This document shows, piece after piece, positions 2,694 through 18,606 of a stretch of 64,000 nt of DNA. Numbering within the stretch: position 1 is the stretch's first letter; each line of letters begins with the position of its first letter. This DNA is from a virus. Position numbers and translations under genes: made by a program. The notes below the pieces were generated by a model. The model did not search any database and was not told the origin of the DNA. It saw nothing but the letters and a program-made list of their open reading frames with translations. The DNA lies in the IMG/VR virus record IMGVR_UViG_3300036846_000488, positions 1 through 64,000 of that record, one strand, 5' to 3'.

Positions 2694-3692
2694 CTACGCC
2701 ACCGCGTTGGCCAGGAAGATGCCCATGTCCTTGGCGACCACGCGCATGTCGTACGTCATCTCGCCCTCGATGCGGTCCGCAGCGATCGGCTCCATCCGGA
2801 AGTTCTTCATCCGGATCCCGAAGCTGTTCCCAGCCAGGTACCCGTTCCAGGTGAAGGTGTAGCCACCAGCCGGAGTCATCAGGGACGGCGAGCTGGGGGT
2901 GTAGACCAGCAGCGCCGACTTGGAGTTGGACATGAACTGGTACGTCGCGGCGGCGTCCTGCGCCTTGGCGTCGTTCAGCTCGGCCACGTTGGTCACCGTC
3001 GCGTAGCTGACCAGGATCCGCTCCACGTCGAACAGCGACGCGAGCAGGTCGGTGGTCACCACACCACGCTGGGTGTACTTGATCCGGTCGATGATGTCCG
3101 GGTGGTTCTTCAGCTGGGTGATCGTCCGAGCACCGAGGACCAGCGTGTTGGCCTTGCGGCCTGACTGCTCCACGAAGTTCGTCTGCAGGTCAGCGAACTG
3201 CACGATCGGGTCCGAGGCCGGGTCGCTCCACTGCAGGAACTGCCCTGCACCGACTGTCCCGGTCACGCCGGTGAGGTCGGTGCCCCACTGGCCGGTGGTG
3301 AAGAACTTGCTGTTCCAGTCCAGGTCCCGCCGGAGCAGGAGCTGGTTGGTCACGAACGTGGTCGCGTCCGAGTCCAGCCGCCAGTTCGAGTCGGCGTTGG
3401 AGCGCACCTGGTCGTCGATGTCCTTGTGGACACCCCAGACCTCGCAGAAGTACTGCCCCGTGTCGATCTTCCAACCGACTCCAGCCGTCTCGGTGCCGGG
3501 CGCGCGTTTCTGCGCGTCGGTCCTGCGCCAGTCGGACTTGGAGTACTTCCAGTACAGATCGCTCTGCTTCTGCACCGGCACCCGCGGGAACACCTTGTCC
3601 GCGATGAACTGCGCCTTGTCCTGCATGTAGGCGACAGAGACGTTGGTGAGCGGAACATTGACGTGGAGATCGCTCTGAGTGGGGTTCGGCAT
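2694..3692 (-). CDS. major capsid protein
   Basis: 332 aa; PLTNVSVAY...FIADKVFPRVPVQKQSD N-terminus of lambda gpE-like HK97-fold capsid proteins; follows scaffold and decoration genes. Confidence 0.88.
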   Translation of the reverse strand: MPNPTQSDLHVNVPLTNVSVAYMQDKAQFIADKVFPRVPVQKQSDLYWKYSKSDWRRTDAQKRAPGTETAGVGWKIDTGQYFCEVWGVHKDIDDQVRSNADSNWRLDSDATTFVTNQLLLRRDLDWNSKFFTTGQWGTDLTGVTGTVGAGQFLQWSDPASDPIVQFADLQTNFVEQSGRKANTLVLGARTITQLKNHPDIIDRIKYTQRGVVTTDLLASLFDVERILVSYATVTNVAELNDAKAQDAAATYQFMSNSKSALLVYTPSSPSLMTPAGGYTFTWNGYLAGNSFGIRMKNFRMEPIAADRIEGEMTYDMRVVAKDMGIFLANAVA

Positions 3693-3705: not shown

Positions 3706-4107
3706 TCAGATCGTCAGGAGAACGTTGACGAGTTCTCCGGCGTTGGCGGCGGTGGACAGTGCGATGCCGACGATGGCGGTGGCACCTGCGGACGTGGCCT
3801 GGCCATCTGCACTGACCTGGACCTTGGCACCCGCGACGATCGGCGCATCGGCGACCACCTTGGACACCCCGTGGATGGCGACCGTGGCGGCCTGGCCGGC
3901 ACCCTGGGGCTTGTTCTGCATCACCCCGATGCAGGGACCGGTGCCATCACCCAGTCCCACCTGATGCACCCCGGTCACCTTCACGAAGTGGTACTGCTTC
4001 CCACCATTCGGATCCAGGGAGCCGGGCTGACCCGGGACTCCCGTGTAGATGCCCAGGGACGAGTCCGCGTTCAGCGTGATCGACCGTAGGCTCTCTTCGT
4101 AGGCCAT
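3706..4107 (-). CDS. capsid decoration/cement protein (DUF2190-like)
   Basis: 133 aa; GVMQNKP..GQAATVAIHGVSKV...VGIALSTA pattern; directly upstream of MCP. Confidence 0.75.
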   Translation of the reverse strand: MAYEESLRSITLNADSSLGIYTGVPGQPGSLDPNGGKQYHFVKVTGVHQVGLGDGTGPCIGVMQNKPQGAGQAATVAIHGVSKVVADAPIVAGAKVQVSADGQATSAGATAIVGIALSTAANAGELVNVLLTI

Positions 4108-4121
4108 GAGCTACTTCCCTC

Positions 4122-4946
4122 CTACCGGTTCTGCTGCGAACGCAGGTACTCGTCGTAGGCGTCCGGATTCTGGTCGAACACCGTATTGATGGCTGAGACA
4201 GCGTTGTAGTCCTCGGACTTCCCGAAGGCCTCGTGAGCGTGCGCCTCGACCTGGCTGTAGATGTCGGCGTTGTCGCCGCCACCCTGGTAGCCGGTCTCCT
4301 CGAAGATGATCTCGCCCGCCGTCTCCAGCGCCTTGGCGATCACCTTGCAGTCGTCGAAGCTCATCGTCTCGGCCATCCGGTAGAGCACCGGACCGAGCTC
4401 GTCGGCAGGGATCGGGAGGTTGTACTCCGCGGCCTTGGAGATGTACTCGCGGGTCAGCCGGAGGTCTCGCTCGGACTTCGCGATCCGGCTGTTCTCCTGC
4501 AGCGCGGTCTCCAGCTCCTCGACTCGACCGAGCGCCTTGGCGATCACCGAGTCGCGGTCCTTGTCGCTGAACGCCTTGCTGAGCTCCTCCATCACCGCAG
4601 CTGAGAAGCTGCCGGTCTGCGGAGCAGACTTCTCGAAGAAGGCCGACTTACCGACCCCAGCGAGCTCGGGCACGGGCTGGTCCTCCTCCACCATCACATC
4701 GCCGTCGTCCGCGCCATCGTCCTCGACGTACTCGTAGGCCTGGCCTGCGTCGTCGTACACGATGTCGCCGAACTCCAGCTGGTCCTCATCGAGGGGCTTA
4801 CCCTCCTGGTTGTAGAGCTTGGGCATCTCTTCCTCCTCGGGAGCCCGCTTCGCGATGACGAACCGTGAGTACTGGTTCGCGGCCTTGTCGACTGTGGAGA
4901 TCTCGTCGATCTCCATGTCCGTCAAGTTCTTGATCGGTCGTGGCAT
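4122..4946 (-). CDS. capsid scaffolding protein with N-terminal XkdF/prohead-protease strand
   Basis: Acidic, helical, upstream of decoration/MCP; begins MPRPIKNLTDMEIDEISTVDKAAN; 10 of 15 Lys lie in hydrophobic-x-K-[ASR]. Confidence 0.72.
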   Translation of the reverse strand: MPRPIKNLTDMEIDEISTVDKAANQYSRFVIAKRAPEEEEMPKLYNQEGKPLDEDQLEFGDIVYDDAGQAYEYVEDDGADDGDVMVEEDQPVPELAGVGKSAFFEKSAPQTGSFSAAVMEELSKAFSDKDRDSVIAKALGRVEELETALQENSRIAKSERDLRLTREYISKAAEYNLPIPADELGPVLYRMAETMSFDDCKVIAKALETAGEIIFEETGYQGGGDNADIYSQVEAHAHEAFGKSEDYNAVSAINTVFDQNPDAYDEYLRSQQNR

Positions 4947-4957
4947 CTCATCTACCT

Positions 4958-6337
4958 CTAGTTCTCAGTCTCACGGTGCTGTCCATTCGGGTTGTCGCTG
5001 TGATCGACTCCGAAGGCTGATGTGGTGTCGCGCTTCTCGTAGGACTGCCAGGAGTTCCTCCGGCCATGATGAGCCAGAGCAGCCCCGGCACCAGTCACCG
5101 CAGCCACCCCACCCAGACCAGCAGCGAGCTTCCCGCTCCGGGTTGCCTTGGCATGACGCACCGCCTGAGCCGCCTTCACGTTCGGCAGGTGCCGGGCCTG
5201 GATCTGACCCGCAGTCCGGTTCTTGCTCTCGTTCTTCAGCGCGTGGACTCCAGCCGCTACCGCACCTGTTCCAGTGCCCGCAGCCACGGACGCTCCACCG
5301 ACCTCGTACTTCTTCGCGCGCGCGTGCCGTTTCGCCTCGGGGTCGTAGTTCCGAGCCACCGGCTCCCAGGCCTTGGCGATCTCCTCCTCGATCTGCTCGT
5401 GGGTGATCGCGTGGCCCTCCTCACCGAAGTAGCCCATCTCCATGCCGAGGTCCGATGCTCCTTCAGACTTCTTCACCGGTACTGCCTGCTTCCGCCGGCG
5501 CGACTCCGCCGAGTAGATGCTCGCCTGGTTGAAGCCGCCCACGCCGCCGATGCCACCAGAGACGATCCCGGTGTTGATCGCGGCGTTCTTCATCCCCTCC
5601 GGAGTCGCGTTCCCCAGCTTCGGGACCTTCCGGATCGCCTTCAGGGTGCCGGTGCCCACCCTGCCCTTGCGCGCAGCCACCGCGGCCACGCCGGTGATCC
5701 CGAGCCCGGACAGACCCAGAGTGGAGGTGGTCCGGGCGATCTTGCCCTGGATCTTCTGGCGATGACGGAGCTCGGTGTCGCTCATCGAACGAGCCTTGCT
5801 GACCGGCTTCCGCGCCCTCAGCTTCGTCTGCTGGACGGCCAGCGTCTTCTTCTGCTCCTTCCGCGTCGCCAGTCCGGCGGTGGCAGTCAGTCCGGCTCCG
5901 CCTGCGATCCCAGCCATCCCCCAGCGACCCGGGTGGTGCGCCTTCTCCGCGGCCTTGGTACCGACATCGGTGATCAGATGCACCGACTCTCCCCGGGGGA
6001 TGAACCGCTTCTCCAGCTTCTCCTTGTTCTCAGCGATCTTTCGGTCTCGACGAGTCGTGCCGAGGTAGGCAGGAGAACCTGCTGCGGTGCCGATCACAGA
6101 TCCGGTGAGCACCGCGTTCAAGTTGGTGCCTCGACGGATGGAGCGGTCGTCCTTCATGTCCTGGTTCAGCTGGCCGAACCTGCGACCCTTCGGCTTCCCA
6201 TTCGACTTCAGACGGGTAGCTGGATCGCTGGTGAGGTTCCCGACCCGGGCCTGGGCCCGGGCCTGAGCCCTGCCCCGGACCGCGTGGAAGGCCCCACGCA
6301 CCTTGTCGGTCCTCTTCGGGAGCCTCAGCGTGGTCAT
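4958..6337 (-). CDS. cationic Gly/Ala-rich multi-module putative internal head polyprotein
   Basis: 459 aa, SD GGGAGG; repeated basic + small-residue hydrophobic segments separated by LEK|R, VSK|A, VKK|S, IAK|A, YEK|R; C-terminal SAFGVDHSD. Confidence 0.6.
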   Translation of the reverse strand: MTTLRLPKRTDKVRGAFHAVRGRAQARAQARVGNLTSDPATRLKSNGKPKGRRFGQLNQDMKDDRSIRRGTNLNAVLTGSVIGTAAGSPAYLGTTRRDRKIAENKEKLEKRFIPRGESVHLITDVGTKAAEKAHHPGRWGMAGIAGGAGLTATAGLATRKEQKKTLAVQQTKLRARKPVSKARSMSDTELRHRQKIQGKIARTTSTLGLSGLGITGVAAVAARKGRVGTGTLKAIRKVPKLGNATPEGMKNAAINTGIVSGGIGGVGGFNQASIYSAESRRRKQAVPVKKSEGASDLGMEMGYFGEEGHAITHEQIEEEIAKAWEPVARNYDPEAKRHARAKKYEVGGASVAAGTGTGAVAAGVHALKNESKNRTAGQIQARHLPNVKAAQAVRHAKATRSGKLAAGLGGVAAVTGAGAALAHHGRRNSWQSYEKRDTTSAFGVDHSDNPNGQHRETEN

Positions 6338-6390
6338 AAACGCCTCCCGTGGCCGTTGCAGAAAGACTTTCCGGCCCCTACGCTGAAAGA

Positions 6391-6714
6391 ATGGGATCCA
6401 GCAAGGAGTACATGCGCGAGTGGCGAGCGAAGAACCAGGACAAGATACGCGAGTACAACCGCAAGAGTCGGTACAACAGGTACGGCCCCTCCCGCCAGGC
6501 CGCCATCGACTACCTCGGTGGGCGGTGTCACGGCTGCGGCTTCGATGATGTCCGATGCCTCGATGTCGACCACGTTTTCGGCGGTGGGAGCAAGGAGCGC
6601 GCTCGGCGCGACCGGATTGCCTTCTACAAAGATGTCGTCGCCGGGGACCGCCCAGATGTCCAGCTTCTCTGTCTCAACTGCCATCGGATCAAGACCTCTC
6701 TGGAGCGTCAGTAA
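6391..6714 (+). CDS. HNH endonuclease, free-standing, antisense to the structural operon
   Basis: CHGCG...LDVDHV.GGG...QLLCLNCHRIKT HNH/Zn motif. Confidence 0.85.
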   Translation: MGSSKEYMREWRAKNQDKIREYNRKSRYNRYGPSRQAAIDYLGGRCHGCGFDDVRCLDVDHVFGGGSKERARRDRIAFYKDVVAGDRPDVQLLCLNCHRIKTSLERQ

Positions 6715-7834
6715 CAGGACTCCGACGGCCCGAGCCATGGATGCTGAACCCGGTCCGCTCGCCGGACTTCACCTTCGCCCAGACATCGGGATCCTGGACC
6801 TTGAATCCGACCCACCAACCGGTGGGCACCGAGTCTGGCAGACCCATCGCGTCTCGCTTCTCCGGAGTCACGATGAAGCTCTCGATCATCTCGCTCTTCT
6901 GGACCGGGCTCCAGTCGTCACGCAGGTGCATGTCCCCGCCCTTGCGGGACTTCATCACGTACTCGTAGCCGGCCTTCTCCATCTCGTCGACGGAGATGTA
7001 GTCGCCCTGCAGATCTACCACCGGCTCCCCGTTCACCTCCACCACCGAGGCCCAGCCGAAGATCTGCTGCTTGTCGGCGTCGGCCTTGGAGATCTCGGCG
7101 TTCCAGATCACGTCTACTTCGGTGTCGTCGGCCTTGCTGATCTGAGGTACCGGTTGGACGAACTTCCCCCGTACCTTCCCGTTCGGCTTGGCGGTGCCGG
7201 CTCGCACCCGCTCGTTGTACGCCGCCCGCATCTTCTCCTTGTCGAACCGGAGCGCCTTCTCGACCTGGTTGGTGGTGATCACCTTGTCCGGGAGCTTCTT
7301 CAGCGCCCCAGCGCCCTTCTTGGTGTACTCCAGCCCCTTCTTCCGGACCTTCGGGTTGGAGATCACAGCCATGGTCAGCTGTCCCTTGGTCCGGGGGATG
7401 CCGGCGTTGTTCCGCATGTCGGTGGAGTCCGCCTTGACCACCGGAGTCTTCTTCTTGGTGTCCCCGTGCAGGATCTTGGTGGCCATCAGCTCACCACCCA
7501 GCCCCGCCACCTCCAGTGGCACCAGTCCGGCGGCCAGCTTCTTGGACTTCACCGCGGTCTTCAGCGCCCTGAACTTGGCCCTGGGTGCATGGAACTCGTG
7601 GGCTGCCTGCTGCGCCTCCCGAGCCTTGCGGTACCCGCCATGCGTCTCAGAGGCAGCCAGCCCCAGACCAGCAGCACCAGCGGTGGCTCCGACCGCGCTC
7701 AGCCCGGCGGTGAACGCTCGCTTGCGCTTGTCGTGGGTGGCCAGGTCGGACTGGGCGGGGTTCATCTTCTCGATCAGCTCGTCGCCGCCACCAGCGAGGA
7801 TCAGCTCGGCTACCTCCCGCATCACATCGCTCAT
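6689..7834 (-). CDS. XkdF-like (S78-type) prohead serine protease with long N-terminal cationic extension
   Basis: C-terminal core 6689-7084: IFGWASV...DLQGD...GDMH...ESF...GWWVGFKV...WAKVKSGERTGFSIHG. Confidence 0.82.
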   Translation of the reverse strand: MSDVMREVAELILAGGGDELIEKMNPAQSDLATHDKRKRAFTAGLSAVGATAGAAGLGLAASETHGGYRKAREAQQAAHEFHAPRAKFRALKTAVKSKKLAAGLVPLEVAGLGGELMATKILHGDTKKKTPVVKADSTDMRNNAGIPRTKGQLTMAVISNPKVRKKGLEYTKKGAGALKKLPDKVITTNQVEKALRFDKEKMRAAYNERVRAGTAKPNGKVRGKFVQPVPQISKADDTEVDVIWNAEISKADADKQQIFGWASVVEVNGEPVVDLQGDYISVDEMEKAGYEYVMKSRKGGDMHLRDDWSPVQKSEMIESFIVTPEKRDAMGLPDSVPTGWWVGFKVQDPDVWAKVKSGERTGFSIHGSGRRSPVTDAPERS

Positions 7835-7856
7835 GTGTCCATCGTCCTAGCCTCCG

Positions 7857-10532
7857 CTACTCGTACGGGCGCATCGGGACGACCGGGATCTCCCGGCCCT
7901 CGTCCTCGATGTAGTCGGTGGTCGGTCCCGTCTCCACGTACTGGCCGGACAGTTTGAACATGTGCGGCCCTGCCGTCCGAACCATGTTCTCGTCCCGATG
8001 CCCGTGCTGGACCTCCAGCACCCGGTAGTTGAACTCGTCGGGATGCACCCCGGCCTGCTCCAGCACGTCCTGGTCGTTGACGTAGGAGAAGTCCTCGGAG
8101 ACTCGATGCCCCATGCTGTCGGTCCAGATCACGTCCTCGTAGTTGTCCAGATCGATGTCGTTCCAGGTCTCACTCTGCTGCGTGCTGGTGGCGAACCGGT
8201 GCAGCGCGGCCTCGAAGGACTGTGAGCTAACCACGGCGTACATCGGCTCACCATCCTCATCGACGCTCTGGACCCGAACTGAGCCGTTGTGATGAGATCC
8301 CAACACCGCGTCCAGGATCTCGTCCTCCTTCGCCCGGCGGGCCTCGGTGACCGCCATCCCGACCTGATCCCGGGAGTCGACGAACAGCTTCTGATCCAGG
8401 TACATGTCGGTGTCGTAATCACTCAGGTGCACCACCGCGTAGTAGGAGCGACCATCCGGATGCAGCTGGACCGGCCCGTACGGAGCCAGGTCCGGCTTGC
8501 CCTCGGGCTGCACCGCGGGCTCCACGTTGATCGCCGTGGAAGGTCCCGTCAGGTTGATCTCCGAGGGCGCTCCGGTCAGATTGATCTGCTGCTCTGGTAC
8601 CAGGCTGATCGTGGGCTGAGCGATCGAGATCTCCGCCGGCGCGATGTTGATCTCCTCCTGAGCGATACTGATCTGACGCTTGGGCCGAGGTCGCGGAGCG
8701 ATGTTGATCAGACCGCCGGTGATGTTGATCTCCTTCGGCTCTGGGGTCTCGGACTCAACCATCGGCTCCTCGGGCTCCTCCATCGCCGCTAGCTGCCGCC
8801 AGATATCGGCCCGCGGGCGCTCCTTGGTGGTCACTCGGGAGAAGCGGCCTGGGTTCTCCGGATCGCCCCCGCGCGGGTGCTCCTTGGCATCCCAGTCGGC
8901 CTTGGAGATCCGGTGCGAGGTCTGCTTCAGATGCACGACGGTGAGCCCGTTGTCCTCCCCCACCTGCGTGATCTGGAACTCTCCCCGGGTGATCCACTCC
9001 GCCTGCCGCTCGGAGACCAGCGGAGAAATGTTCAGCGCGTTGGCCTTCGGCTCCAGCATCATCACCAGTGGATGCGCGGAGGTGTCGGTCCGGCCCTCAC
9101 GCTTCGCGTGCGCGCGAGCGATCATCGGGCCCCACTTCCGGGCGAAGTGCTCGGAGAACGACCGATCCTCGGTGAACGAGGAGATCGGCAGGGTGAAGGT
9201 GCTGCCCTGCTTCAGCTCGTCCAGATGCTCGGTGGTCACCGTCATCCCCCGGTACAGCGCTGGAGCGTTCGCCGGCGCGGAATCCACAGCCTTGATCAGT
9301 GCCTTCAGCGACTTCTCGGTCTGGCTCAGCTTCATCTTGCCGGCGTAGTACTCGTTGTCCGGGTCCTCCATCTTCCGCGCCCGCTGGACGTGTGCGGACT
9401 TCCGGGACCAGGCCGCAGCGCCGTGCGCCAGCCGAGCCATCTCCTTGTCCCGGTGCTTCAGTGGGGTGATCAGGTAGCGCGGCTCCTTGACGTAGCCGAC
9501 AGCCTGAGCACTTCGGTGAACGATGGTTCCCTGGATCACCTTGGCTGAGGGGCTCTCCAGGGCGTTCACCTTGTGCCCAAGCTGCCGAGTTCGGGACTGG
9601 CCCCCGGCCCAGCGACCGTCGCCCCCACGCGGCTGATGCGGATCGAACCGCTTCTCCAGCTTGAACCGGTTCTCGATCAGTCGAACCACACACCGACAGT
9701 TCGGGTGCACGCCCGGTGACCAGAAGTCACCTTCCTTGGTCTTGAACTGCTCGTTGACCAGCACCTTCTGCCCGTGCAGCGGGCCGCACACCGGACAGAC
9801 CCGCTCGTCGTGAGCGGTGATCCAGATCTTCTGAGCGCGCTCGGTGAGCCGGCCCTTGTCCTGCATCCACATCCAAGCGAACTGCTTGGCCTGCTCCTCG
9901 ATGTTGTGCTCTTCCTGCTCGCTCAGCTTCTTGACCCGACCGGTGAAGGACTTGTCGATGTAGTCCCTGGACCTGGCCTTCACGTCGAACGACGCCGGAG
10001 ACTCCACCGAGGTGGTCAGCTGCTGGTTGTGTGCGTACCCGCGCATCTGTCGAGGGGTCAGCCCGTAGGCGTCCAGCACCTTGTCCGCTGCCGCCTTGGC
10101 CGGGATCCTCCGGTTCACCATCGTGTTGAAGCCCTCGGCCAGCGCATCCCGAGAGGAGGCGTGGAAGTAGTCCCCGACCTTCTCCGCGTGCTTCTCGGCC
10201 AGGTCGTAGATCACGCTCATCGGCACGTCACCGGCTCCGGCCCGCGTCCACGCGCGCACGTAGGCGTCCGCGATCACCGGAGCTGAGACCTTCCGGTACT
10301 GCGGCAGGAGGATCTGCCAGGTCATGTCTGCCAGCCGCAGCAGCTGACCGTAGGTGGGCTCTACCAACCCCCGCGCCTCGGCCTTCATCTGCGACACCAT
10401 CCGGGCCCGGACCATCGCCAGCGCGGCCTCCAGGGCCTCGGCTGGTGAGGTCAGGAAAGCCCCCGGGGCGGGTAGATCCCGGGGTCGGAGATCGGTGGGG
10501 TTGAAGTGCAGCTCAACCGAGGGAGAGGTCAC
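7857..10532 (-). CDS. MuF-like minor head protein fused to an ADP-ribosyltransferase domain and an unknown C-terminal domain
   Basis: KIWIT..DERVCPVC..LHG...HPNCRC MuF signature; LYRGM...ISSFT...QAEW R-S-E ART motifs at about 8901-9650. Confidence 0.8.
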   Translation of the reverse strand: MTSPSVELHFNPTDLRPRDLPAPGAFLTSPAEALEAALAMVRARMVSQMKAEARGLVEPTYGQLLRLADMTWQILLPQYRKVSAPVIADAYVRAWTRAGAGDVPMSVIYDLAEKHAEKVGDYFHASSRDALAEGFNTMVNRRIPAKAAADKVLDAYGLTPRQMRGYAHNQQLTTSVESPASFDVKARSRDYIDKSFTGRVKKLSEQEEHNIEEQAKQFAWMWMQDKGRLTERAQKIWITAHDERVCPVCGPLHGQKVLVNEQFKTKEGDFWSPGVHPNCRCVVRLIENRFKLEKRFDPHQPRGGDGRWAGGQSRTRQLGHKVNALESPSAKVIQGTIVHRSAQAVGYVKEPRYLITPLKHRDKEMARLAHGAAAWSRKSAHVQRARKMEDPDNEYYAGKMKLSQTEKSLKALIKAVDSAPANAPALYRGMTVTTEHLDELKQGSTFTLPISSFTEDRSFSEHFARKWGPMIARAHAKREGRTDTSAHPLVMMLEPKANALNISPLVSERQAEWITRGEFQITQVGEDNGLTVVHLKQTSHRISKADWDAKEHPRGGDPENPGRFSRVTTKERPRADIWRQLAAMEEPEEPMVESETPEPKEINITGGLINIAPRPRPKRQISIAQEEINIAPAEISIAQPTISLVPEQQINLTGAPSEINLTGPSTAINVEPAVQPEGKPDLAPYGPVQLHPDGRSYYAVVHLSDYDTDMYLDQKLFVDSRDQVGMAVTEARRAKEDEILDAVLGSHHNGSVRVQSVDEDGEPMYAVVSSQSFEAALHRFATSTQQSETWNDIDLDNYEDVIWTDSMGHRVSEDFSYVNDQDVLEQAGVHPDEFNYRVLEVQHGHRDENMVRTAGPHMFKLSGQYVETGPTTDYIEDEGREIPVVPMRPYE

Positions 10533-13500
10533 GCGGTGTTCTTCCGACGCAAGTAGCCCTCGTCATCCTGCTCGAACAACTCCGATCGGGTCTCAGCCAG
10601 ACCACGCTCACCAAGGTCTAGCTTGTTGTGCCGGTCCGGAAGCGTCTCGTACGCATGCTGGGTTTTCGCCAGCATCTCGCCAATCTCCACCTCACTCGGA
10701 GTCTCCCCGCTCTCGATCAGAGTCTGCAGCTCCTCGGCAGCAACCAGCGCCTTGTCACCGGGAGTGACATCGAGGAGCCCGTGACCATACCGCCAACGAC
10801 GCAGCGCCTCGACTCGCTGTCGCACCACTGCCTGCTTCTCGACATCGCTCATCGCCTGGCCCACCGAGTTAGGAGCGCTCGGACGCACCGCGACGCTCCG
10901 ATCCCATGAGCCCTGGTAATGTGCCTTGAGCGCGCGCATCCGGTGCACGTCGGTGATCCGTTCGAGCAGGTCTTCCTTCTTCGCACCCACGATCATGTCG
11001 ATGGCCCGGTTGTCGTAGTGGTCCTTGAAGATCCGCTGAGCCACCTGCCGGCGCATGTCGATGTTGTTCGGGTCCTGGACTGCCGGGTTCCGGTCGACCT
11101 CCTGGTAGACCTGGCGCAACGCACTGAGCTCGTTCTTCATCGCCTCATCGCCCCGCCTCGCCACCTCGGACAGAGGTAGTCCGGTGGTCACCGAACGGGT
11201 CCGGTTGTCGATCGCCTGGATCTGGGTGTCACGCTGAGCGTCGGAGTCGGTGGTCTGGTAGCCCTCGCCCTGGAACGTCATCGGGTCCGTGGTCCAGTAC
11301 AGCGCCATCCGAGGATCGAAGGCCACCGCGTTCAGGTCTCCGCGTGAGGCCGCATAGGCCTGAAGCGCGGACCTCTGACTGGGTGAGGACAGGTGACTCC
11401 GCAGCCTCTCGACCAGCTCGTTGAACCGAGCGTTGTGCTCCGGGTCCTGGATGGCCGTGGCGAAGGCCCCTGGATCTACCTTCGAGTCTGCCAACCCGAT
11501 CACGTCCTCGAACGCGAGCCGAGATGCCGGGTCGAGAGGCAGCTGCTGGATCTCGGTGAACAGATTCACCGCGCTGTCCTGGTACTGAGCCTGACGAGCG
11601 GCCTGGTCGACAGGTGTTGGCGCTCCTGCCGCTGTGGTCTCTGGAGTCGCAGCGGCCTCCTCCGTCGCCTCCGTCTGCGGGTTCGCAGCCCGCTGGTGGG
11701 GCACCCGATCGCCCTGACCAGGACCGATCCGACCACGCTGGTAGTCGGCCTGGGAGGCGGAGAACTTCTCGCTCCCGACCGAGCCACCGGCAACGGCGTT
11801 CGCCTCGGTGCCGAACAGACCCGCGCGCACCGCCGTGGGCCGGTTCCGACCGGGCTCGACGTAGCCCTTGTCCTTCTCTCCGGAGAAGGTCTCGTCCTCC
11901 TTGGTGATCACCGGGTGGGACTTGATGTAGTACGGGAACTGCTCGGCCAGCGCGTCCTGCGCGGCCTCGTAGCCCTTGGCATTCAGCTTGTAGTTCCCGG
12001 CCTTGCCGGCCATCACCATGTTCCGGGCAGCCCGGGACCACTCCACCTCATCCCGAGAGGGGTGATCCTTCATCCCCTGCTCGGCCACCAGACGCATGAT
12101 CTTCTCGTCCTCGGGAGTGAAGTCCGGGTCCTCCTGGTACTCCATGATCCGGGACTGGACCTTGGCCTTGATCGCCGGCCCGCGCTCGCCCGGGTACTCC
12201 TGCGCGACCTCGCGCTGGATCGCCTGCCGGACCGGAGCCGGCACGTCACCGGTGCTGACCTTGTTCGACTGCACCGCATCCAGGAGCTGCTCGTAGCGTC
12301 GGGTCATCCGCAGCGCCTTGTCGTTGTACCGACGCCCGCCCCGGAAGTCCTGCTCGAACTCGATCGAGAAGGTGCCCGAGCGCGAGGTCACCGTGACCCG
12401 ACGCGCACCGGAGATCAGCCCGGTGTAGATGTCCTCGGAGGTCAGCCCGCCCACCGAGCGGGTCCGGACGTACTCCCCACCCTTCAGCGCCTTCAGGTTC
12501 TTCAGGTTGAACGGCAGGTAGTGGTCGTCGCCGTAGCCGACCGCCTGAGTGACGATCTGCCCGTCCTTGTTCAGGATGATTCCCTCCGAGGGCGGCAGGT
12601 TCCCGGACTCGGACTGCAGGTTGTAGAGCTCCCCCTTGGGGAAGTTGGGGGAGCGCCTCAGCTGCTGGACGATCACCTTCCGGCCCTGAGCCAGTTCCGA
12701 ACGAGTCGGCGGGCGATCCATCGCCTTGGCCCGAGCAGCACCCATCTGGGAGATCGAAGGAGCGACCGGTCCGCCACCCTTGGGGTGCACCCGAGTACCC
12801 GACCGACGCATCCCGAGCTCGTCAGCCCGGGGCTTCTCACCGGCCCGAGGGACGTAGAGCTCGGTCTGGTCCGGCACCCCACCGGTGCTCTTGGCGCTCG
12901 CGATCGCGCGCCCGTAGAGCGCCACGATGTGCGCGTCCGGCTTCTTCTCGGTGCCCCGGTACCGATAGGCCGTCTTCCGGGCGGTAGGGCCGATCACGGC
13001 CTCGGCCTCGGCACCATGGCTGCCCACGACCTCCGCGAGCTTCGCCGCAGCCGCCACCTTCGTTCCCGGTGCGATCGCACCGACGTAGGAGCCGGTAGTA
13101 CCCACCCGGTTGTACAGACGCTCGTTGGAGGCCTTCATGTCCGGGGGAGCAGCGCGCCACTGAGCACCGAACGTGGGCATCTGGTCCAGAGCGGTGTTGG
13201 CCATCTCCATCCGCTGGCCGGTCCGGTCACCGGGCTGAGCACCCAGCGCGTGCGCCAGGCTGAACGCAGCCCCGCCGGCGGTCAGTGTGGTGGGCGTGGC
13301 GTCGGCCTCCAGCAGCGTGTAGTGCGGGTTCAGCAGCAGATGGTTGGCGTCGCCGGCCCCGCCCATGTGCCGGACCCGGAACTCGTTCCCCTGCTGGTCC
13401 GCGAACCGCAGGTGCACCTGACGGTCTCCGTCCGCGCCAGTGGACTGGCTGGCCACGTTCAAGAAGCCGGCCAGCTGTCGGTACTCGTCCTGGTACTGGG

Positions 13501-14233
13501 CCTTCTGCTCCTTGGTCAGCCGGGCGTACTGCATCCGCTGGGCGGGGTCGTGGGGCACCAGGCCCATCCCGTTCGCGACCTTGTTCGAGAACGGGGCCTT
13601 CTGGTTGTGCTTGATCTTGGACCGGAACTGACCGGAGTGCGGGTCGCGACGGAAGTCGGACTCCTTGAACTCGTAGAGCCCGGCGATGTAGGGGTTGACC
13701 ACCGCCTTCTCGATCTCCTCCAGGGCAGCCGCAGCCTCCTTCGCGCCCTCGTGGTGGCCCTTCGCGATGGTGGCCATCATCGCCTTCTTGACCAGCTCCA
13801 CCCGCTGGTACAGCACCTCGTCCAGGTGCCGCTGCAGAGTGCGCAGGTTCTTCTCCACGTCGGTCTCGAAGATCTCGCCGGCCACCATGGTGGTGAACAT
13901 CTCGGCGGAGTCGTCGTCCATCTTCATCACCAGGTCGAAGGTCTTCCTGGCGGCCTCGTGGTTGAACTCGGGGTCATCGGAGTGCACATGTTCCTCGTAG
14001 AGGTACTTCTTCACCCGGCCCTTCTTCTTCCGCCGGTGCTCGCGCTCGATGTCCTGGACCCGTGGGAACTGGTTGGCCAGGCCACCGGCCACGGTGCCGG
14101 CGATGACCGGCTTCAGCCAGCCCTCACCCCTGGACTTGGCGATCTTCCCGCCGGTCTCCTTGTCCCACTTCGCCGCGATCTGGGGGTGCTTGGCGTGCAT
14201 GAACTTCCGCTGAGCAACGCTCTTGTAGGGCAT
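10529..14233 (-). CDS. large (1234 aa) putative internal/ejected head protein with degenerate JAB-like domain
   Basis: Start reassigned to MPYKSVAQRKF (14233); lies between portal and MuF; internal EGIILNKDG...GGEYVRTRS..GLTSEDI. Confidence 0.6.
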   Translation of the reverse strand: MPYKSVAQRKFMHAKHPQIAAKWDKETGGKIAKSRGEGWLKPVIAGTVAGGLANQFPRVQDIEREHRRKKKGRVKKYLYEEHVHSDDPEFNHEAARKTFDLVMKMDDDSAEMFTTMVAGEIFETDVEKNLRTLQRHLDEVLYQRVELVKKAMMATIAKGHHEGAKEAAAALEEIEKAVVNPYIAGLYEFKESDFRRDPHSGQFRSKIKHNQKAPFSNKVANGMGLVPHDPAQRMQYARLTKEQKAQYQDEYRQLAGFLNVASQSTGADGDRQVHLRFADQQGNEFRVRHMGGAGDANHLLLNPHYTLLEADATPTTLTAGGAAFSLAHALGAQPGDRTGQRMEMANTALDQMPTFGAQWRAAPPDMKASNERLYNRVGTTGSYVGAIAPGTKVAAAAKLAEVVGSHGAEAEAVIGPTARKTAYRYRGTEKKPDAHIVALYGRAIASAKSTGGVPDQTELYVPRAGEKPRADELGMRRSGTRVHPKGGGPVAPSISQMGAARAKAMDRPPTRSELAQGRKVIVQQLRRSPNFPKGELYNLQSESGNLPPSEGIILNKDGQIVTQAVGYGDDHYLPFNLKNLKALKGGEYVRTRSVGGLTSEDIYTGLISGARRVTVTSRSGTFSIEFEQDFRGGRRYNDKALRMTRRYEQLLDAVQSNKVSTGDVPAPVRQAIQREVAQEYPGERGPAIKAKVQSRIMEYQEDPDFTPEDEKIMRLVAEQGMKDHPSRDEVEWSRAARNMVMAGKAGNYKLNAKGYEAAQDALAEQFPYYIKSHPVITKEDETFSGEKDKGYVEPGRNRPTAVRAGLFGTEANAVAGGSVGSEKFSASQADYQRGRIGPGQGDRVPHQRAANPQTEATEEAAATPETTAAGAPTPVDQAARQAQYQDSAVNLFTEIQQLPLDPASRLAFEDVIGLADSKVDPGAFATAIQDPEHNARFNELVERLRSHLSSPSQRSALQAYAASRGDLNAVAFDPRMALYWTTDPMTFQGEGYQTTDSDAQRDTQIQAIDNRTRSVTTGLPLSEVARRGDEAMKNELSALRQVYQEVDRNPAVQDPNNIDMRRQVAQRIFKDHYDNRAIDMIVGAKKEDLLERITDVHRMRALKAHYQGSWDRSVAVRPSAPNSVGQAMSDVEKQAVVRQRVEALRRWRYGHGLLDVTPGDKALVAAEELQTLIESGETPSEVEIGEMLAKTQHAYETLPDRHNKLDLGERGLAETRSELFEQDDEGYLRRKNTA

Positions 14234-14234
14234 C

Positions 14235-15212
14235 TCAGGATCCCTTCTTCTTGCGACCGGCGAGCAGGCCACCAGCGGCTACCGTACCGACTACCGCCGA
14301 TGGGCCGCGGAACCTGCGCACCACCTTCGCGGTGTCCCCGTACACCTCGGCGAAGTGAGTCGCCTGCGCGGCATCGCCACGGAGCCTGCCGGCCTTCGCC
14401 GCGGTCTCGTGCGAGACACCGTGCAGGTACTTCTTCGGGTCTCGTGCCATCGCCTCATCGGAGTGCACCGGATACCTGGACTTGGGGAACGGCTGGCCCG
14501 GGTGCCTCTTGACCTGCCGCGCGTACTGCTTGTCGGTGACCGTGGGGTCCTTGCGTCCTGCCATGCTCGGGATCAGTCGCCCAGCCTCATCGATGGCGTG
14601 GCTGGCCCGGTTGTTCCACTTCTTCTCCTGACGCCCCAGCACCGCGCCAGCACCGGTGCTGACCGCCGCGCCGGTGGCACCAGCACCCGCGAGGGTGGCG
14701 TTGTACGCCTGGCCTCGACGACGGTCCTTGCGCACCTCGCTCTTGGCCCGGTGCACGCCGTACGCCGTGGCCGCAGAGCCACCGATCAGCGCTGCGCCGG
14801 CGACCTTCTTGGCCCCCGCCATGTGCCGCAGCACCTGCAGCTCCGGCTTGATCTTGCCCTGGTTCCGAGCGCGGGTGAACGTCTGCGAGGGAGTCGGGTT
14901 CTTGATCTTGGACTTCTTATCCTCCACCCGCTGGAACCACTTCACGCCGCCCTCATGGACAGCACTGCGGTAGCCGAGGACACCGCCACCGCCCAGCTTC
15001 GCTCCGGCCCTGGCCTTCCCAGCCAGCCCTGGCTCCTTCAGCCGAGCCACGTCGTGGTAGCTGCCCTTGACCCCGGGGATGCCACCGGCCACCAGTCCGG
15101 TCCCTGCCGTGACCGCGCCAGCACCGGCGATCGCCGAGCCCTGAGCATGGCGCTTGTCGCTGTTCTTCTTGGAGACCACATCGCCATGGTCGATCCCGAA
15201 CCCGCTGATCAT
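14235..15212 (-). CDS. Gly/Ala-rich cationic putative internal head protein with SGFGIDHGD leader
   Basis: MISGFGIDHGDVVSK|K leader; several AGA/GxxxG segments each followed by basic residues. Confidence 0.6.
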   Translation of the reverse strand: MISGFGIDHGDVVSKKNSDKRHAQGSAIAGAGAVTAGTGLVAGGIPGVKGSYHDVARLKEPGLAGKARAGAKLGGGGVLGYRSAVHEGGVKWFQRVEDKKSKIKNPTPSQTFTRARNQGKIKPELQVLRHMAGAKKVAGAALIGGSAATAYGVHRAKSEVRKDRRRGQAYNATLAGAGATGAAVSTGAGAVLGRQEKKWNNRASHAIDEAGRLIPSMAGRKDPTVTDKQYARQVKRHPGQPFPKSRYPVHSDEAMARDPKKYLHGVSHETAAKAGRLRGDAAQATHFAEVYGDTAKVVRRFRGPSAVVGTVAAGGLLAGRKKKGS

Positions 15213-17077
15213 CGCTTCCCCTTCGGTGGGGGCTTCTTCGCGGTCTTCTTCGATGCTCCTACGGACCTGGCCGGCGGCTTCGCGAACCGCTGCTTGTCCT
15301 TCAGCTGCTGGGCGGTCAGCTTGGCGTTCGTGGCAGCGGAGCGGTCCTTCAGCCGCATCTGCTCCTTGGTCCGCTTGTGATCTCGGTTGGCCATCGTGTC
15401 CTGCAGGCGCATCTTCTCCTTCTCGCGCCCGTGCTGGGACTGAGCCACCTTCTCCTGCTGCTGCATCATCTGCAGCTGGCGACCATGCTCCTTGTCGGCG
15501 TTCGGGTCCTCAGGCGGCGGCTGGTTGGCCAGCTGCTGCTGCTGAGCCTGCATCTGCAGGTCCTGCTCCTGGGTGGCCGGGTGCGGAGTCTGGGCGTGCA
15601 TCTCGGCCTGCTCCGGGGTCATCCCCTGCGCCGTCATGTCGGCCTTCTGCTTCAGCCCGAGCAGCTCCATCTGGCCCTGCCCGTACTCCATGGCCTGCTG
15701 CTGCTCCAGCATCACCTTCTTGTAGTCCACGTCCTCGTCGGTCATCTCCGGGAGGCGAGCGATCTCGCGGATGTACTTCTCCAGCTCCGGGTCCGGGAAC
15801 CACTGCATGCCGGCACCAGCGGTCGCCGAGATGAAGGCAGCCAGCTGGTCCAGGGCCGGCGGATCCACATTGGTGGGCTCGAACCTGGGCAGCTCGTCCA
15901 GCTTCCAGCCGTTCACCGCGAACAGCCGGGGCACCGCGTATCGGTTCAGGGTGTCCGCGATGGACTTGGTGATCGCGTTCAGAGCAGCCCGGAAGATGCC
16001 GGTCTTGTCGGTGTGCAGGGAGTAGGAGCCGGTGTCCTGGTGTCCGACCAGGATGAAGTCGGCCAGCACGCTCATCAGGATCCGCTGCTCGTAGCGCTGG
16101 ATGATGCTGTTGGTGTCGAACTGCCGGGTGCCACCGGAACTCATCAACTCGAAGTCGAACAGCGGCTGCTTGGTGTCCGGGTCGTACTGGGTGGGCAGCA
16201 CCAGGCCCTCGTTCTCATCCCGCCTGACCCCGCGGACCATCTTCCGGAAGGCGTCCACGGTCTTCGCCTGCGGGGTGCCCTTGGCCGCAGTCAGGTAATC
16301 GGCAGGTACCCGACCCACCGGCATACCCGCCAGGTCACGCTCGACACCGATCGCCTCGAACTCCTCCAGCCGCTTCTTGAAGTACCAGGACCGGTAGGAG
16401 CTGCGGAGCAGGCTCAGACCCTCGGGGTTGCCCTTGGCGATGGAGGTTCGGAACAGGATGCTCTTCTCGATCGGGATCACCGTGGTGGCGTACCGGGGAG
16501 GTGCCATCTGCACCATCGCCCGGATCCCGCCGGTCTCGTCGAAGGACCAGCGCAGCATCGTCTCCTGCGCGCGGATCGGCATCTTCCGCCAGCCGATCTT
16601 GCCGTCCGTGTACTTCGAGCGCTTCTTGGGATTCTTCTCCCAGGGACCGACCCGCTTCTTGTAGACGATCTCGTGCCAGGACCAGCCGAAGGTGATCATC
16701 GAGAGGATCTCGCCGATCAGGTCGTCCCAGCTGTGGGACATGTCCTCCATGCAGGATTCGAGGAACTCCTGGGCCTCATCACCGTCCGTGCCTGAGTCTG
16801 CCGGCAGCACCTTCCACTCCACCTCGCGGAGCAGCTTGTCGATGCTGAACAGCAGCGCCCCGACCATCGAGTCGTTGGACGCCATCTCCCGGTAGACCCG
16901 GACCGCCTTGCGGCCACGCAGCGCCGGCAGGAACTCCTCGTCGATGTAGCCGGAGACCCGCTTGAGTCCGGTGACACCGAGCTCCTCCATCGGACCCGAC
17001 CGCTGCGGGACCTCATCGCCGGCGTTGTCCTCGTCCCAGGTGGAGATGTCACCCTGAGGGAGCCGCACGTCTGCCAT
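15209..17077 (-). CDS. portal protein (Mu gp29/DUF935-like) with Gln-rich and basic C-terminal extension
   Basis: Follows TerL; FGWSWHEIVY, NPEGLSLLR..Y..W..K, IGVERDLAGMP motifs. Confidence 0.85.
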   Translation of the reverse strand: MADVRLPQGDISTWDEDNAGDEVPQRSGPMEELGVTGLKRVSGYIDEEFLPALRGRKAVRVYREMASNDSMVGALLFSIDKLLREVEWKVLPADSGTDGDEAQEFLESCMEDMSHSWDDLIGEILSMITFGWSWHEIVYKKRVGPWEKNPKKRSKYTDGKIGWRKMPIRAQETMLRWSFDETGGIRAMVQMAPPRYATTVIPIEKSILFRTSIAKGNPEGLSLLRSSYRSWYFKKRLEEFEAIGVERDLAGMPVGRVPADYLTAAKGTPQAKTVDAFRKMVRGVRRDENEGLVLPTQYDPDTKQPLFDFELMSSGGTRQFDTNSIIQRYEQRILMSVLADFILVGHQDTGSYSLHTDKTGIFRAALNAITKSIADTLNRYAVPRLFAVNGWKLDELPRFEPTNVDPPALDQLAAFISATAGAGMQWFPDPELEKYIREIARLPEMTDEDVDYKKVMLEQQQAMEYGQGQMELLGLKQKADMTAQGMTPEQAEMHAQTPHPATQEQDLQMQAQQQQLANQPPPEDPNADKEHGRQLQMMQQQEKVAQSQHGREKEKMRLQDTMANRDHKRTKEQMRLKDRSAATNAKLTAQQLKDKQRFAKPPARSVGASKKTAKKPPPKGKR

Positions 17078-17103: not shown

Positions 17104-18606
17104 TCACACCATAAGGTCTAGGTCCTCCGAGACCTGGAGAGACTTGTTCTCGACGCTGCCCACCGTCCAGTTCCCCGGCTTCCGCTTCGCGTCGTTGTTC
17201 TGGCGCATCTCCTCCTCGATCCAGGTCGGACCGTGGTCACCGACCACCACCAGCGGCTGGGCTGGAATCGCCCGCTTGGAGACCAGCCGGTAGCACAGCG
17301 CCATCGAGCAGATCTCGTCCGGGAGGTGGAACTCCTTCCCGCGCGCATAGAGCATGTCCACCGAGGCGTACAGGTGGTTCTTGTAGAAGACCGGCACCCG
17401 CGGGGCCTTCCAGCGGTCGTTCTCGATCGAGCTCACGTACTCACTCAGCATGTTGTCCCGCTGGGCCCCGGTCATCAGGAAGCCCCGAGCCCGCCGGTCG
17501 ATGTAGTCCGCGACCACCGCGCCCAGCCCGGTGGCGTCGTGGATGCCCTCGGCGTTGTACTCCTTCATCAGCTTGTTGAACTCCCCGATCATCACCGGGT
17601 AGGGCAGCCGGCGCATCCGAGACCAGTGCACCACCCGGCACGGGAACCGGGTCACGTCAGCGACCGTGATCACCGTCCAGTCCTGCTCCTTGGCCCAGTC
17701 CGCACCGATCACGTACTCCCGGTCCTGCAGCGAGTTCTCGAACCGGTAGACCTGACGTTCCTTGCTCACGCTCTCTCGGATGCTCTCCTCGGGCAGATCG
17801 AACATCCGCTCCACCGCTGCCGAGTCGATGGCACGAGAGCCGATGCTGGGCTCACCCAGGTCGTACTCCACCCGCCACATCTCGGCGGGGATCTCCCGGC
17901 GCTTCTGGTCGATGGTCTCCTGGTCCAACCAGCCGTCGATCTCGTTACTGGTGTCCTTGTAGCACCAGGTGTAGATCGGCAGGTTCTCCTCCTGGAACCG
18001 CAGGTACTCGTGCGCGAAGGTCTTGTCCGGGTACTGCCAGGTCGAGCTCATCGCAGTCATCGGGCGCACGATGTCGCCCTTCCAGTTCTTCTGGGGCATC
18101 GGCTGGCCCTTGGCCGCGTCGAAGATGGCCTGGTCCATCTCGTCGATCTCATCCAGCAGCAGGGTCGGCGGGTGCGGGCCACGGACCGTCTTCTGGGAGG
18201 CCGTGAGCGGCATGATCGTGGCCCGGTTGGTGAGCTTGATCCGGGTCGCCGACTCCTCCTTGACCAGATAGGAGGGAGCGTTGCTGTGCTCCCAGGCGTC
18301 CCGGATGGTGTTGTGAATGTTGATCGACTGGTTCAGCGAGCCACCGACGATGTTCACATCCGAGCCGGTGATCGCGGCCTTGGTCAGGCCCAGGATGGAG
18401 AGCAGCCGGGACTTCCCGGACAGACCACGAGAGCCGTGGATCAGGATCTGTGGCTCGCGGTTGAAGTAGGCGGTGGCGAAGGCGTCGAACGGAGCGTCGT
18501 GGTCTGAGCAGACCTTGTACCGGGGGATCGTCAAGCCCCAGAGGGCCTTGACTACCTCGTACAGCTCGTCATCCGAACGCGGCGCGCGACCCAGGATGAT
18601 GCTCAC
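17104..18606 (-). CDS. terL: terminase large subunit
   Basis: Walker A GSRGLSGKS, Walker B LLLDEID, RNase H-like IGADWA..DWT and C-terminal PDEICS. Confidence 0.9.
   Translation of the reverse strand: MSIILGRAPRSDDELYEVVKALWGLTIPRYKVCSDHDAPFDAFATAYFNREPQILIHGSRGLSGKSRLLSILGLTKAAITGSDVNIVGGSLNQSINIHNTIRDAWEHSNAPSYLVKEESATRIKLTNRATIMPLTASQKTVRGPHPPTLLLDEIDEMDQAIFDAAKGQPMPQKNWKGDIVRPMTAMSSTWQYPDKTFAHEYLRFQEENLPIYTWCYKDTSNEIDGWLDQETIDQKRREIPAEMWRVEYDLGEPSIGSRAIDSAAVERMFDLPEESIRESVSKERQVYRFENSLQDREYVIGADWAKEQDWTVITVADVTRFPCRVVHWSRMRRLPYPVMIGEFNKLMKEYNAEGIHDATGLGAVVADYIDRRARGFLMTGAQRDNMLSEYVSSIENDRWKAPRVPVFYKNHLYASVDMLYARGKEFHLPDEICSMALCYRLVSKRAIPAQPLVVVGDHGPTWIEEEMRQNNDAKRKPGNWTVGSVENKSLQVSEDLDLMV

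Follow-up and report, generated by a model that had tools for sequence, protein, structure and literature searches.

The DNA analyzed in our study comprises the first 64,000 nucleotides (64 kb; the window in the following) of IMG/VR record IMGVR_UViG_3300036846_000488, a viral genome of 81,256 bp that is rated complete by CheckV; the window has a guanine-cytosine (GC) content of about 64%. Its head block lies on the minus strand, as do all window features below unless stated otherwise. It includes genes for a large terminase (17104-18606), a Mu-type portal (15209-17077), a protein of 1247 amino acids (10529-14272; 1234 amino acids from the second Met), a MuF-family protein of 891 amino acids (7857-10532), a prohead protease of 381 amino acids (6689-7834) and a Gly/Ala- and Lys-rich protein of 459 amino acids (4958-6337). 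An acidic protein of 274 amino acids (4122-4946), encoded between the protease block and the genes of a cement protein (3706-4107) and the major capsid protein (2694-3692; 332 amino acids, aligned end to end with phrog_1005), is our scaffold candidate. Here we describe a short Lys context in these proteins, a hydrophobic residue two positions before Lys (hydrophobic-x-K), as a candidate cleavage site of the prohead protease. A first-pass annotation had reported this context in the longer form [ILVFY]-x-K-[ASR] as a code running through the whole operon. That motif was defined post hoc, from looking at the sequence, and all tetrapeptides listed for it were found on the minus strand.

Neither the protease-to-scaffold region nor the scaffold matched any of 50,697 GenBank phage records in DNA and protein searches. 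The close relatives are IMG/VR contigs only, from which 63 related loci were recovered, and the nearest capsid proteins of cultured phages share only about 46% identity with the capsid protein of the window. The related loci yielded 46 unique scaffold homologues with identities of 43-85%.

Lysine context of the scaffold candidate

Within the scaffold candidate, 10 of the 15 Lys residues lie in the [ILVFY]-x-K-[ASR] context, which agrees with the count of the first-pass annotation and is far above the 0.83 expected from composition-preserving shuffles. A binomial test for this post hoc motif gave P=6e-10. The same context was found for none of the 34 Glu, one of the 27 Asp and one of the 12 Arg residues. 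Across the 46 homologues, hydrophobic-x-K accounts for 499 of 597 scaffold Lys (84%), with 27% expected. The five Lys of the window scaffold outside the motif are all variable, and at identities as low as 43% eight to nine of the motif Lys are still retained. Moreover, not a single Lys-to-Arg change was observed at eight of the sites in an alignment of 45 homologues, despite a proteome that uses more Arg (6.6%) than Lys (4.9%), which argues for recognition of Lys itself and not of positive charge.

The sites are spread over disordered and helical parts of the protein. In the AF2 (AlphaFold2) model md1aca617d741 residues 1-41 and 75-111 are disordered and residues 114-273 helical. VDK|A at K21 (4881-4892) lies in the disordered N-terminus, with Lys in 33 and Arg in 9 of the 45 aligned homologues, and is followed by IAK|R at K33 (4845-4856), where all 42 aligned homologues have Lys and none Arg. 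VGK|S at K100 (4644-4655), directly before SAFF/SAFG, is invariant (44/44) and forms an island in a variable, disordered acidic linker of the model (local identity 0.46). The neighbouring FEKS at K106 (4626-4637) is not conserved, Lys being present in 11 of 45 homologues. Lys was retained in 45/45 homologues at LSK|A (K124; 4572-4583; helix end in the model), IAK|A (K137; 4533-4544; mid-helix in the model), ISK|A (K171; 4431-4442) and FGK|S (K243; 4215-4226), the last in a modelled loop with a local identity of 0.48. At IAK|S (K157; 4473-4484) 38 homologues have Lys, six Gln and one Met, and at IAK|A (K205; 4329-4340) Lys is kept in 44/45 with mostly Cys at P1' in the homologues. A Pfam search at E values up to 10 found no match for the scaffold or for its first 50 residues.

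The same count was applied to head proteins of known processing. For T4 gp22 it gave 23 of 47 Glu in hydrophobic-x-E (13.5 expected, p=0.0014) and a flat result for Lys; it thus recovered the known Glu specificity of gp21 and serves as a positive control for the method. T4 gp68 showed a Glu bias as in gp22. The scaffold gp8 of P22, which is never cleaved in a phage that has no protease, was flat for Lys, Arg, Glu and Asp and represents the negative control. In HK97, the scaffolding (delta) domain of gp5 has 103 residues (PMC10275583). F-N-K103|S104 at its boundary is an exact fit to the motif of the first-pass annotation, and 6 of 13 delta-domain Lys are in hydrophobic-x-K. Cleavage after basic residues has also been described for an HK97-like system, in which the phi12 capsid protein is cut at R128|L129 and SaPIbov5 Ccm at K87|Q88 (PMC8569155). 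The first-pass annotation had named SPO1/A511-type phages as a Lys|Ser precedent; HK97 and phi12 supply a documented one for a basic P1.

Similar results were obtained for the scaffold-position proteins of four distant cultured phages, in which 52-60% of Lys are in the context and the Arg, Glu and Asp controls are flat. Hydrophobic-x-K was found for 18/30 Lys in gp72 of Roseobacter phage RDJL Phi1 (6.2 expected, p=5e-5), 18/30 in gp54 of Roseobacter phage CRP-6 (8.3 expected, p=1e-4), 21/36 in the 363-amino-acid protein of Rhizobium phage RHEph19 (9.0 expected, p=5e-5) and 12/23 in gp27 of Arthrobacter phage Kovu (4.9 expected, p=1e-3). None of the four has similarity to the window scaffold in BLAST at E <= 1e-3. 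An XkdF-type protease gene matched by the window protease adjoins the scaffold-position gene in RDJL Phi1, CRP-6 and RHEph19. In Kovu the window protease matched no XkdF-type gene, the annotated capsid maturation protease looked MuF-like, and gp27 had no Pfam match at E values up to 10.

Tagged proteins and their leaders

The motif recurs next to a short tag, SAFG[IV][DE]H, which is shared by small proteins of the head block. We identified 134 distinct tags in the window and the 63 related loci, of which 87 lie at the N-terminus, 33 at the C-terminus and 14 at internal or other positions. Many apparent internal tags come from open reading frame (ORF) calls extended upstream of the true Met, and real junction tags are restricted to the loci that we numbered L003/L021, L008, L009, L037, L049, L053 and L058. 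The first Lys follows the His of the 101 N-terminal and internal tags at a distance of 2-11 residues (spacers of 0-9 residues). Its P3 residue is hydrophobic in 101 of 101 cases (Ile 49, Val 47, Phe 5) against a background of 16%, and P2 is mostly Ser, Glu or Ala. Hence the earlier statement that the motif ends every tag leader was borne out and extended to the relatives. Its restriction of P1' to Ala, Ser or Arg did not hold, as P1' after the tags is Ala (41), Gly (16), Leu (10), Phe (9) or another residue. Upstream of C-terminal and junction tags, 39 of 40 have hydrophobic-x-K-[R/S/N] at a distance of 0-8 residues. The motif is therefore situated between tag and cargo in either tag orientation, which fits a processing site and not a fixed bipartite binding epitope.

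The leaders have a length of 13-21 residues, and the 74 unique N-terminally tagged proteins form 40 cargo clusters without detectable mutual similarity that diverge immediately after the Lys. The window encodes tagged proteins of 122 amino acids (1393-1761), with IEK|A (1714-1725) at the end of the leader M(M)ESAFGIDHGD, of 104 amino acids (2303-2617), with a leader ending in IYK|K (2570-2581), and of 325 amino acids (14235-15212), with the leader MISGFGIDHGDV ending in VSK|K (15165-15176). Neither the leader nor the tagged proteins had a Pfam match (E up to 10). In L003 (12327-13805) a homologue of the 459-amino-acid protein runs via ...VSK|SAFGVDHEVSK|A... into a module of 121 amino acids. 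The same module is encoded separately in L004 (10567-11052), downstream of the capsid gene and with an N-terminal tag (44% identity, E=1e-15), and the two arrangements represent a gene fusion or fission at the tag.

The positions of the scaffold and tag sites also bear on a role in which the motif would remain uncleaved. As a structural or binding element, the Lys residues of the scaffold and after the tags would contact the inner capsid, the portal or DNA, and the P3 and P1' residues would be helix-packing neighbours. Half of the scaffold sites are located in or at the ends of modelled helices, hydrophobic residues are also slightly over-represented at -2 of the Glu residues of the window scaffold (15/34 versus 9.4 expected, p=0.02), and scaffold-coat contacts are classically electrostatic, all of which speaks for such an element. 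However, a charge contact should tolerate Arg, which never replaced Lys at the eight sites, and the motif keeps its form within disordered linkers. Switching sides around the tag at spacings of 0-9 residues is unlike a fixed bipartite epitope, and the coat-binding, never cleaved gp8 of P22 lacks such a bias. We consider an uncleaved binding element unlikely.

The N-terminus of the scaffold carries a further recurrent segment. Residues 11-35 (4842-4916) contain E-I-S-x-V-D-x-[A/P]-A-N and, about ten residues later, hydrophobic-x-K-[R/S]; I13, D14, E15, S17, V19, D20 and A23 are invariant in the scaffold homologues. The segment also opens the scaffold-position proteins of RDJL Phi1, CRP-6, RHEph19 and Kovu, and its version in Kovu, T-S-G-V-D-H-P-A-H, closely resembles the tag. 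Outside the window it lies at L066:1753-1860, L067:4549-4650, L065:5500-5598 (minus strand) and L064:12799-12900. All XkdF-type phages that we examined encode this segment where the scaffold gene begins. The scaffold N-terminus resembles residues 139-160 of HK97 gp4, which follow the catalytic Ser (L-R-E-I-S-V-C-T-F-P-A-N ... A-M-K-S), with a weak hhalign match to gp4 residues 139-168 (E=0.17). A speculative reading, which we would not favour at present, is that the SAFG-V-D-H-G tags are copies of this scaffold segment and that scaffold and cargo bind to the protease through a strand which they provide and which the protease gene lacks. Scaffold and cargo would then be recruited together into the procapsid with the hydrophobic-x-Lys placed in the active site; if so, cleavage would be gated by the tag and would not depend on simple consensus scanning.

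The prohead protease and sites in other head proteins

The gene of the prohead protease looks intact. Residues 247-370 match the XkdF/S78_2 family (Pfam PF14550) over profile positions 4-123 of 126 with 73.6 bits (cut-off 24; E=1.8e-20), and the match was reproduced on the whole genome record. PF04586 (Pfam S78) gave no match among the window proteins, nor did a PDB-sequence profile search with the protease. The model of the catalytic domain had T4 gp21 (5jbl_A) as the best of 48,161 PDB representatives, at a Z score of 7.3 (below 8) and a root-mean-square deviation of 3.9; the alignment comprises 116 residues over model residues 236-377 and spans the whole domain. H303 (GDMH) and S364 (GFSIHG) are invariant in 25 protease sequences, and GFSIHG is analogous to GMSVGFS of HK97 gp4. 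By this analogy they presumably correspond to the catalytic His and Ser that are conserved in the assemblin-like clan. The N-terminal 240 amino acids consist of Gly/Ala-rich hydrophobic segments and linkers.

Several sites lie in this N-terminal region. Outside the scaffold, a site was counted as conserved if hydrophobic-x-K occurred within +/-4 alignment columns, because misalignment in Gly/Ala-rich proteins led strict column-wise scoring to understate conservation. IEK|M at K23 (7763-7774) ends a conserved N-terminal leader, and [IV]-x-K with a free P2 is found there in 27/28 homologues. VVK|A at K134 (7430-7441) has its counterpart in 24/28, and VEK|A at K193 (7253-7264), situated in a linker of low conservation (local identity 0.15) that directly precedes the catalytic domain, in 22/28. 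ISKA at K234 (7130-7141) is found in 6/28 only and belongs to an insertion that most homologues lack. The second ISKA, K250 (7082-7093), had been placed just before the catalytic core. It is conserved in 28/28; since it lies inside the Pfam domain, whose match starts at residue 247, and in the first modelled strand (E239-252) of S78_2, K250 is probably structural rather than a cut site.

Conserved sites in the protease's own N-terminal region bear on whether a different enzyme, either a host protease of Lys-specific or trypsin-like type or another peptidase of the phage, might cut at the motif. The motif is tied to the XkdF domain by co-occurrence only, and host proteases mature capsid and scaffold proteins of Staphylococcus aureus phage 80alpha (discussed in PMC8569155). 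Nevertheless, the Lys bias is found in phages of Alphaproteobacteria as well as Actinobacteria, a confirmed XkdF-type gene adjoins in three of the four, and enzymes of the HK97 clan are documented to accept a basic P1. Together with the sites in the protease's own N-terminus this renders cleavage by another enzyme quite improbable.

In the 459-amino-acid protein, whose homologues differ in length and fusion state (family mean identity 28%), two sites are conserved: IAK|A at K322 (5369-5380; 25/26 homologues) and YEK|R at K435 (5030-5041; 26/26), which lies four residues upstream of the C-terminal SAFGVDH tag (5000-5020). The 1247-amino-acid protein has partly conserved sites in its N-terminal part, namely IAK|S at K46 (14132-14143; 15/24), VKK|Y at K89 (14003-14014; 18/24), IAK|G at K171 (13757-13768; 19/24) and IEK|A at K189 (13703-13714; 16/24), against a background of 0.08. 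Its N-terminus (14180-14272) has a conserved opening in most homologues, M-P-Y-K-S-x-A-Q-R-x-F-M-H-A-x-H-P-x-I-A, followed by a K site and the hydrophobic segment GWLKPV-IAGTVAGGLANQFP; the protein may therefore start as a small detachable module. The first-pass annotation had named module-boundary sites in these proteins and the protease. Conservation was seen for K23, K134 and K193 of the protease and for K322 and K435 of the 459-amino-acid protein; it was absent for protease K234, for LEKR-110 (4/24) and VKKS-290 (7/26) of the 459-amino-acid protein and for VKKA-163 (10/24) of the 1247-amino-acid protein.

The MuF-family protein contains the Pfam domain Phage_Mu_F at residues 228-283. LEK|R at K294 (9648-9659) marks the end of this domain and precedes the FDPHQPRGGDGRW motif, and ISK|A at K544 (8898-8909), a site present in 14/25 homologues, precedes DWDAKEHPRGGDPENPGRF. 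Where the MuF domain ends in the homologues of this protein, hydrophobic-x-K comes next, with W-D-P-x-E-HPRGGDPENxGRF after it. The HPR..GRF motif had 21 in-frame matches in homologues of MuF and in related head proteins, and for 20 of them hydrophobic-x-K lies 6-13 amino acids upstream. The window protein has two such junctions, which flank a cassette of about 250 amino acids (about residues 295-545; 8898-9650), and this cassette with the extra duplicated junction is found only in the window and L001. In the ESM Atlas the best cluster for it was ADPrib_exo_Tox, with a score of 0.96, whereas its sequence had no match in Pfam or PDB; we regard it as a putative ADP-ribosyltransferase (ART)-like cassette. 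A second recurrent motif of the general form aromatic...[H/Q]-P-R-..-D-..-G-[R/Q]-[F/W] occurs at 9609-9647 and 8841-8897 in MuF and at 13616-13654 in the 1247-amino-acid protein, 6-13 residues past K sites; it is also present in the 1247-amino-acid family (R-R-D-P-x-S-G-x-F) and in one tagged protein of L025.

With an ART-like cassette in the head block, the Lys residues might instead be modified covalently, for instance acylated, cross-linked or ADP-ribosylated by the transferase that MuF carries, and the strict retention of Lys would equally suit a modifying enzyme. Yet the cassette is missing from most relatives that keep every site, there would be no obvious rationale for modifying Lys residues that separate tag from cargo or stand where a domain ends, and no Lys-modifying enzyme was detected among the head-block proteins. 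Modification of the Lys is thus a very improbable explanation.

By count, the picture outside the scaffold is mixed. The original motif is enriched in the 459-amino-acid protein (6 versus 2.0 expected, p=0.011), the protease (7 versus 2.0, p=0.002) and the tagged protein of 122 amino acids (3 versus 0.37, p=0.004), and it is not enriched in MuF (4 versus 2.4), the 1247-amino-acid protein (4 versus 3.8) and the 325-amino-acid protein (1 versus 1.8). Per Lys, the head block exceeded the other genes with an odds ratio of 2.25 (p=0.002), which dropped to 1.6 (p=0.13) when the scaffold was removed. Across homologues, hydrophobic-x-K comprises 13-37% of Lys in the non-scaffold head families, at 0.6-1.3 times the expectation. 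Therefore, the earlier description of the motif as operon-wide is overstated: outside the scaffold there are particular sites but no general enrichment. Ratios below the simple expectation were obtained for putative cargo and internal proteins, namely the 1247-amino-acid (0.77), MuF (0.73), 325-amino-acid and 181-amino-acid families (both 0.62). Cleavage sites that arise by accident might be avoided in these proteins, or Lys may just prefer hydrophilic stretches.

These counts are also the ones to be weighed for chance, or for an artefact of composition in a proteome that is rich in Ala and high in GC. The agreement of MuF and the 1247- and 325-amino-acid proteins with expectation and the post hoc definition of the motif are in its favour. 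Against it stand the shuffle and binomial tests of the scaffold, the flat Glu, Asp and Arg controls and the replication of the simpler motif in 46 homologues, 134 tags and four unrelated cultured phages. By these tests and this replication chance is ruled out for the scaffold and the tags, and as a general explanation it is hardly credible. It is the default for sites that are not conserved, for instance LPKR, LEKR-110 and VKKS-290 of the 459-amino-acid protein and most sites past residue 200 of the 1247-amino-acid protein.

Proposed processing and comparison with known head proteases

From the sequence comparisons we consider hydrophobic-x-Lys to be the cleavage site of the XkdF-type (S78_2) prohead protease, an enzyme that would act like T4 gp21 with specificity for Lys, and estimate the probability at about 60%. 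We infer binding of the motif by the protease, and cleavage at all, from the distribution of the motif. The recognition site would be [I/V/F/L/Y]-x-Lys with a usually small P2 (Ser, Ala, Glu or Gly) and often Ala, Ser, Gly or Arg at P1', and the cut would follow the Lys. Inside the assembled procapsid the protease would free its own catalytic domain at K23, around K134 and at K193. It would then dice the acidic scaffold at the eight to nine conserved sites and so clear the head for DNA, the resulting peptides being between 6 and about 67 residues long; with all ten window sites in use, the fragments would have 21, 12, 67, 6, 18, 13, 20, 14, 34, 38 and 31 residues. In addition, it would strip the SAFG[IV][DE]HG leaders from the N-termini, and tag copies from the C-termini, of the variable small internal proteins and part the modules of MuF and the N-terminal modules of the 1247-amino-acid protein. 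The first-pass annotation had proposed that one protease matures a whole set of polyproteins. The boundary-placed motif, the strict Lys and the presence of the protease gene are in line with this proposal for part of the set; the motif does not run through every head protein.

Several points weigh against cleavage by the prohead protease. No product of such a cleavage has been seen so far; the virus is known as an uncultured IMG/VR record, and a literature search found no paper on the specificity or cleavage sites of S78_2 proteases. Three of the conserved scaffold sites fall into the middle of predicted helices. The conservation of the leader including I-S-K could stem from common descent of one leader and not from 101 independent events. 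The MuF, 1247- and 325-amino-acid proteins and the 459-amino-acid family show no enrichment by count, and several of the sites named earlier are not conserved. Moreover, the protease's K250 and the YSKS in the capsid protein are presumably retained just as parts of folded domains, so that conservation alone is no proof of a site.

The closest parallel is found in T4, where gp21 reduces gp22, gp67 and gp68 to small peptides and trims short N-terminal leaders from internal proteins and the ADP-ribosyltransferase Alt (PMC9958956). Similarly, the window has a leader that ends in the proposed consensus of its own protease, diverse cargo and a scaffold that is predicted to be diced. The T4 gp21 sites, (L/I)-x-Glu, share the hydrophobic P3 and the free P2, the scaffold bias is visible by the identical count, and the modelled catalytic domain may have a similar fold. 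As in a T4-type system, unrelated proteins share one leader, and the motif at its end is also over-represented in the scaffold. In contrast to T4, P1 is Lys and not Glu, the protease belongs to S78_2 and not to the T4 family, and the sequence of the leader is unrelated. C-termini and internal junctions carry the tag as well, the site then facing the cargo, and the genome is an uncultured, high-GC one of 81 kb. No homology to T4 gp21 or to the T4 capsid-targeting sequence was detected, as S78_2 was the only Pfam match of the protease and the leader had none.

The site itself is more similar to that of HK97, where the F-N-K103|S104 context of delta-domain removal by gp4 from gp5 matches the window motif, and XkdF/S78_2 appears by its name to be a sister family of the S78 of HK97. 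Unlike HK97, the window encodes the scaffold as a separate protein, its capsid protein has no delta domain, and PF04586 was not matched. HK97 is not known to carry tagged internal cargo proteins. The phi12/SaPIbov5 Ccm pair, an HK97-like system with a herpesvirus-type protease, resembles the scheme proposed for the window in cleavage after basic residues, which was measured there; its cuts are single delta-domain cuts with little shared context, and in contrast to the proposed scheme it has no scaffold dicing or tags. For phiKZ gp175 and SPN3US gp245, a consensus found by mass spectrometry recurs in the propeptides of many head and ejection proteins, with several copies of the motif within single propeptides (PMC10052503). 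Those enzymes cut after Glu, and nearly all of their cuts take off N-terminal propeptides, in contrast to the window, whose sites are predicted only. As proposed here, the window system works like that of T4 and its site resembles that of HK97, and it is a member of neither family. New in the window and its relatives are the sequence of the leader and a tag at either terminus or at junctions.

If cleavage occurs as proposed, the motif would show for the first time which substrates the widespread prohead proteases of the XkdF/S78_2 type prefer, namely those with a hydrophobic P3 and Lys at P1. It would also represent a second, independently evolved packaging system of leader plus consensus site akin to the T4 capsid-targeting sequence, in which a leader of 13-21 residues at either end of the cargo would serve at least 40 unrelated cargo families. 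The leaders could be practical handles for loading foreign proteins into capsids, and they may help to annotate internal or ejected proteins of metagenomic phages, including the putative ADP-ribosyltransferase. Tryptic proteomics would be blind to such cuts because trypsin also cleaves after Lys.

Two further observations concern the proteins and genes around the sites. Gly/Ala-rich hydrophobic stretches flanked by Lys/Arg clusters occur at 1393-1761, 2303-2617, 4958-6337, 14235-15212, 7100-7834 and 14000-14150, that is in the tagged proteins, the 459-amino-acid protein, the protease's N-terminal region and the start of the 1247-amino-acid protein. They resemble glycine-zipper, membrane-active segments, which suggests an ejected, membrane-targeting cargo. 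Besides, an ORF of 121 amino acids lies on the opposite strand (6349-6714, plus) at the 351-nucleotide gap between the genes of the protease and the 459-amino-acid protein. Its sequence shows the pattern CxxC...DH...CxxCH, its Pfam match to HNH is weak and below threshold (E=0.031), and it may encode a homing endonuclease inserted into the head operon.

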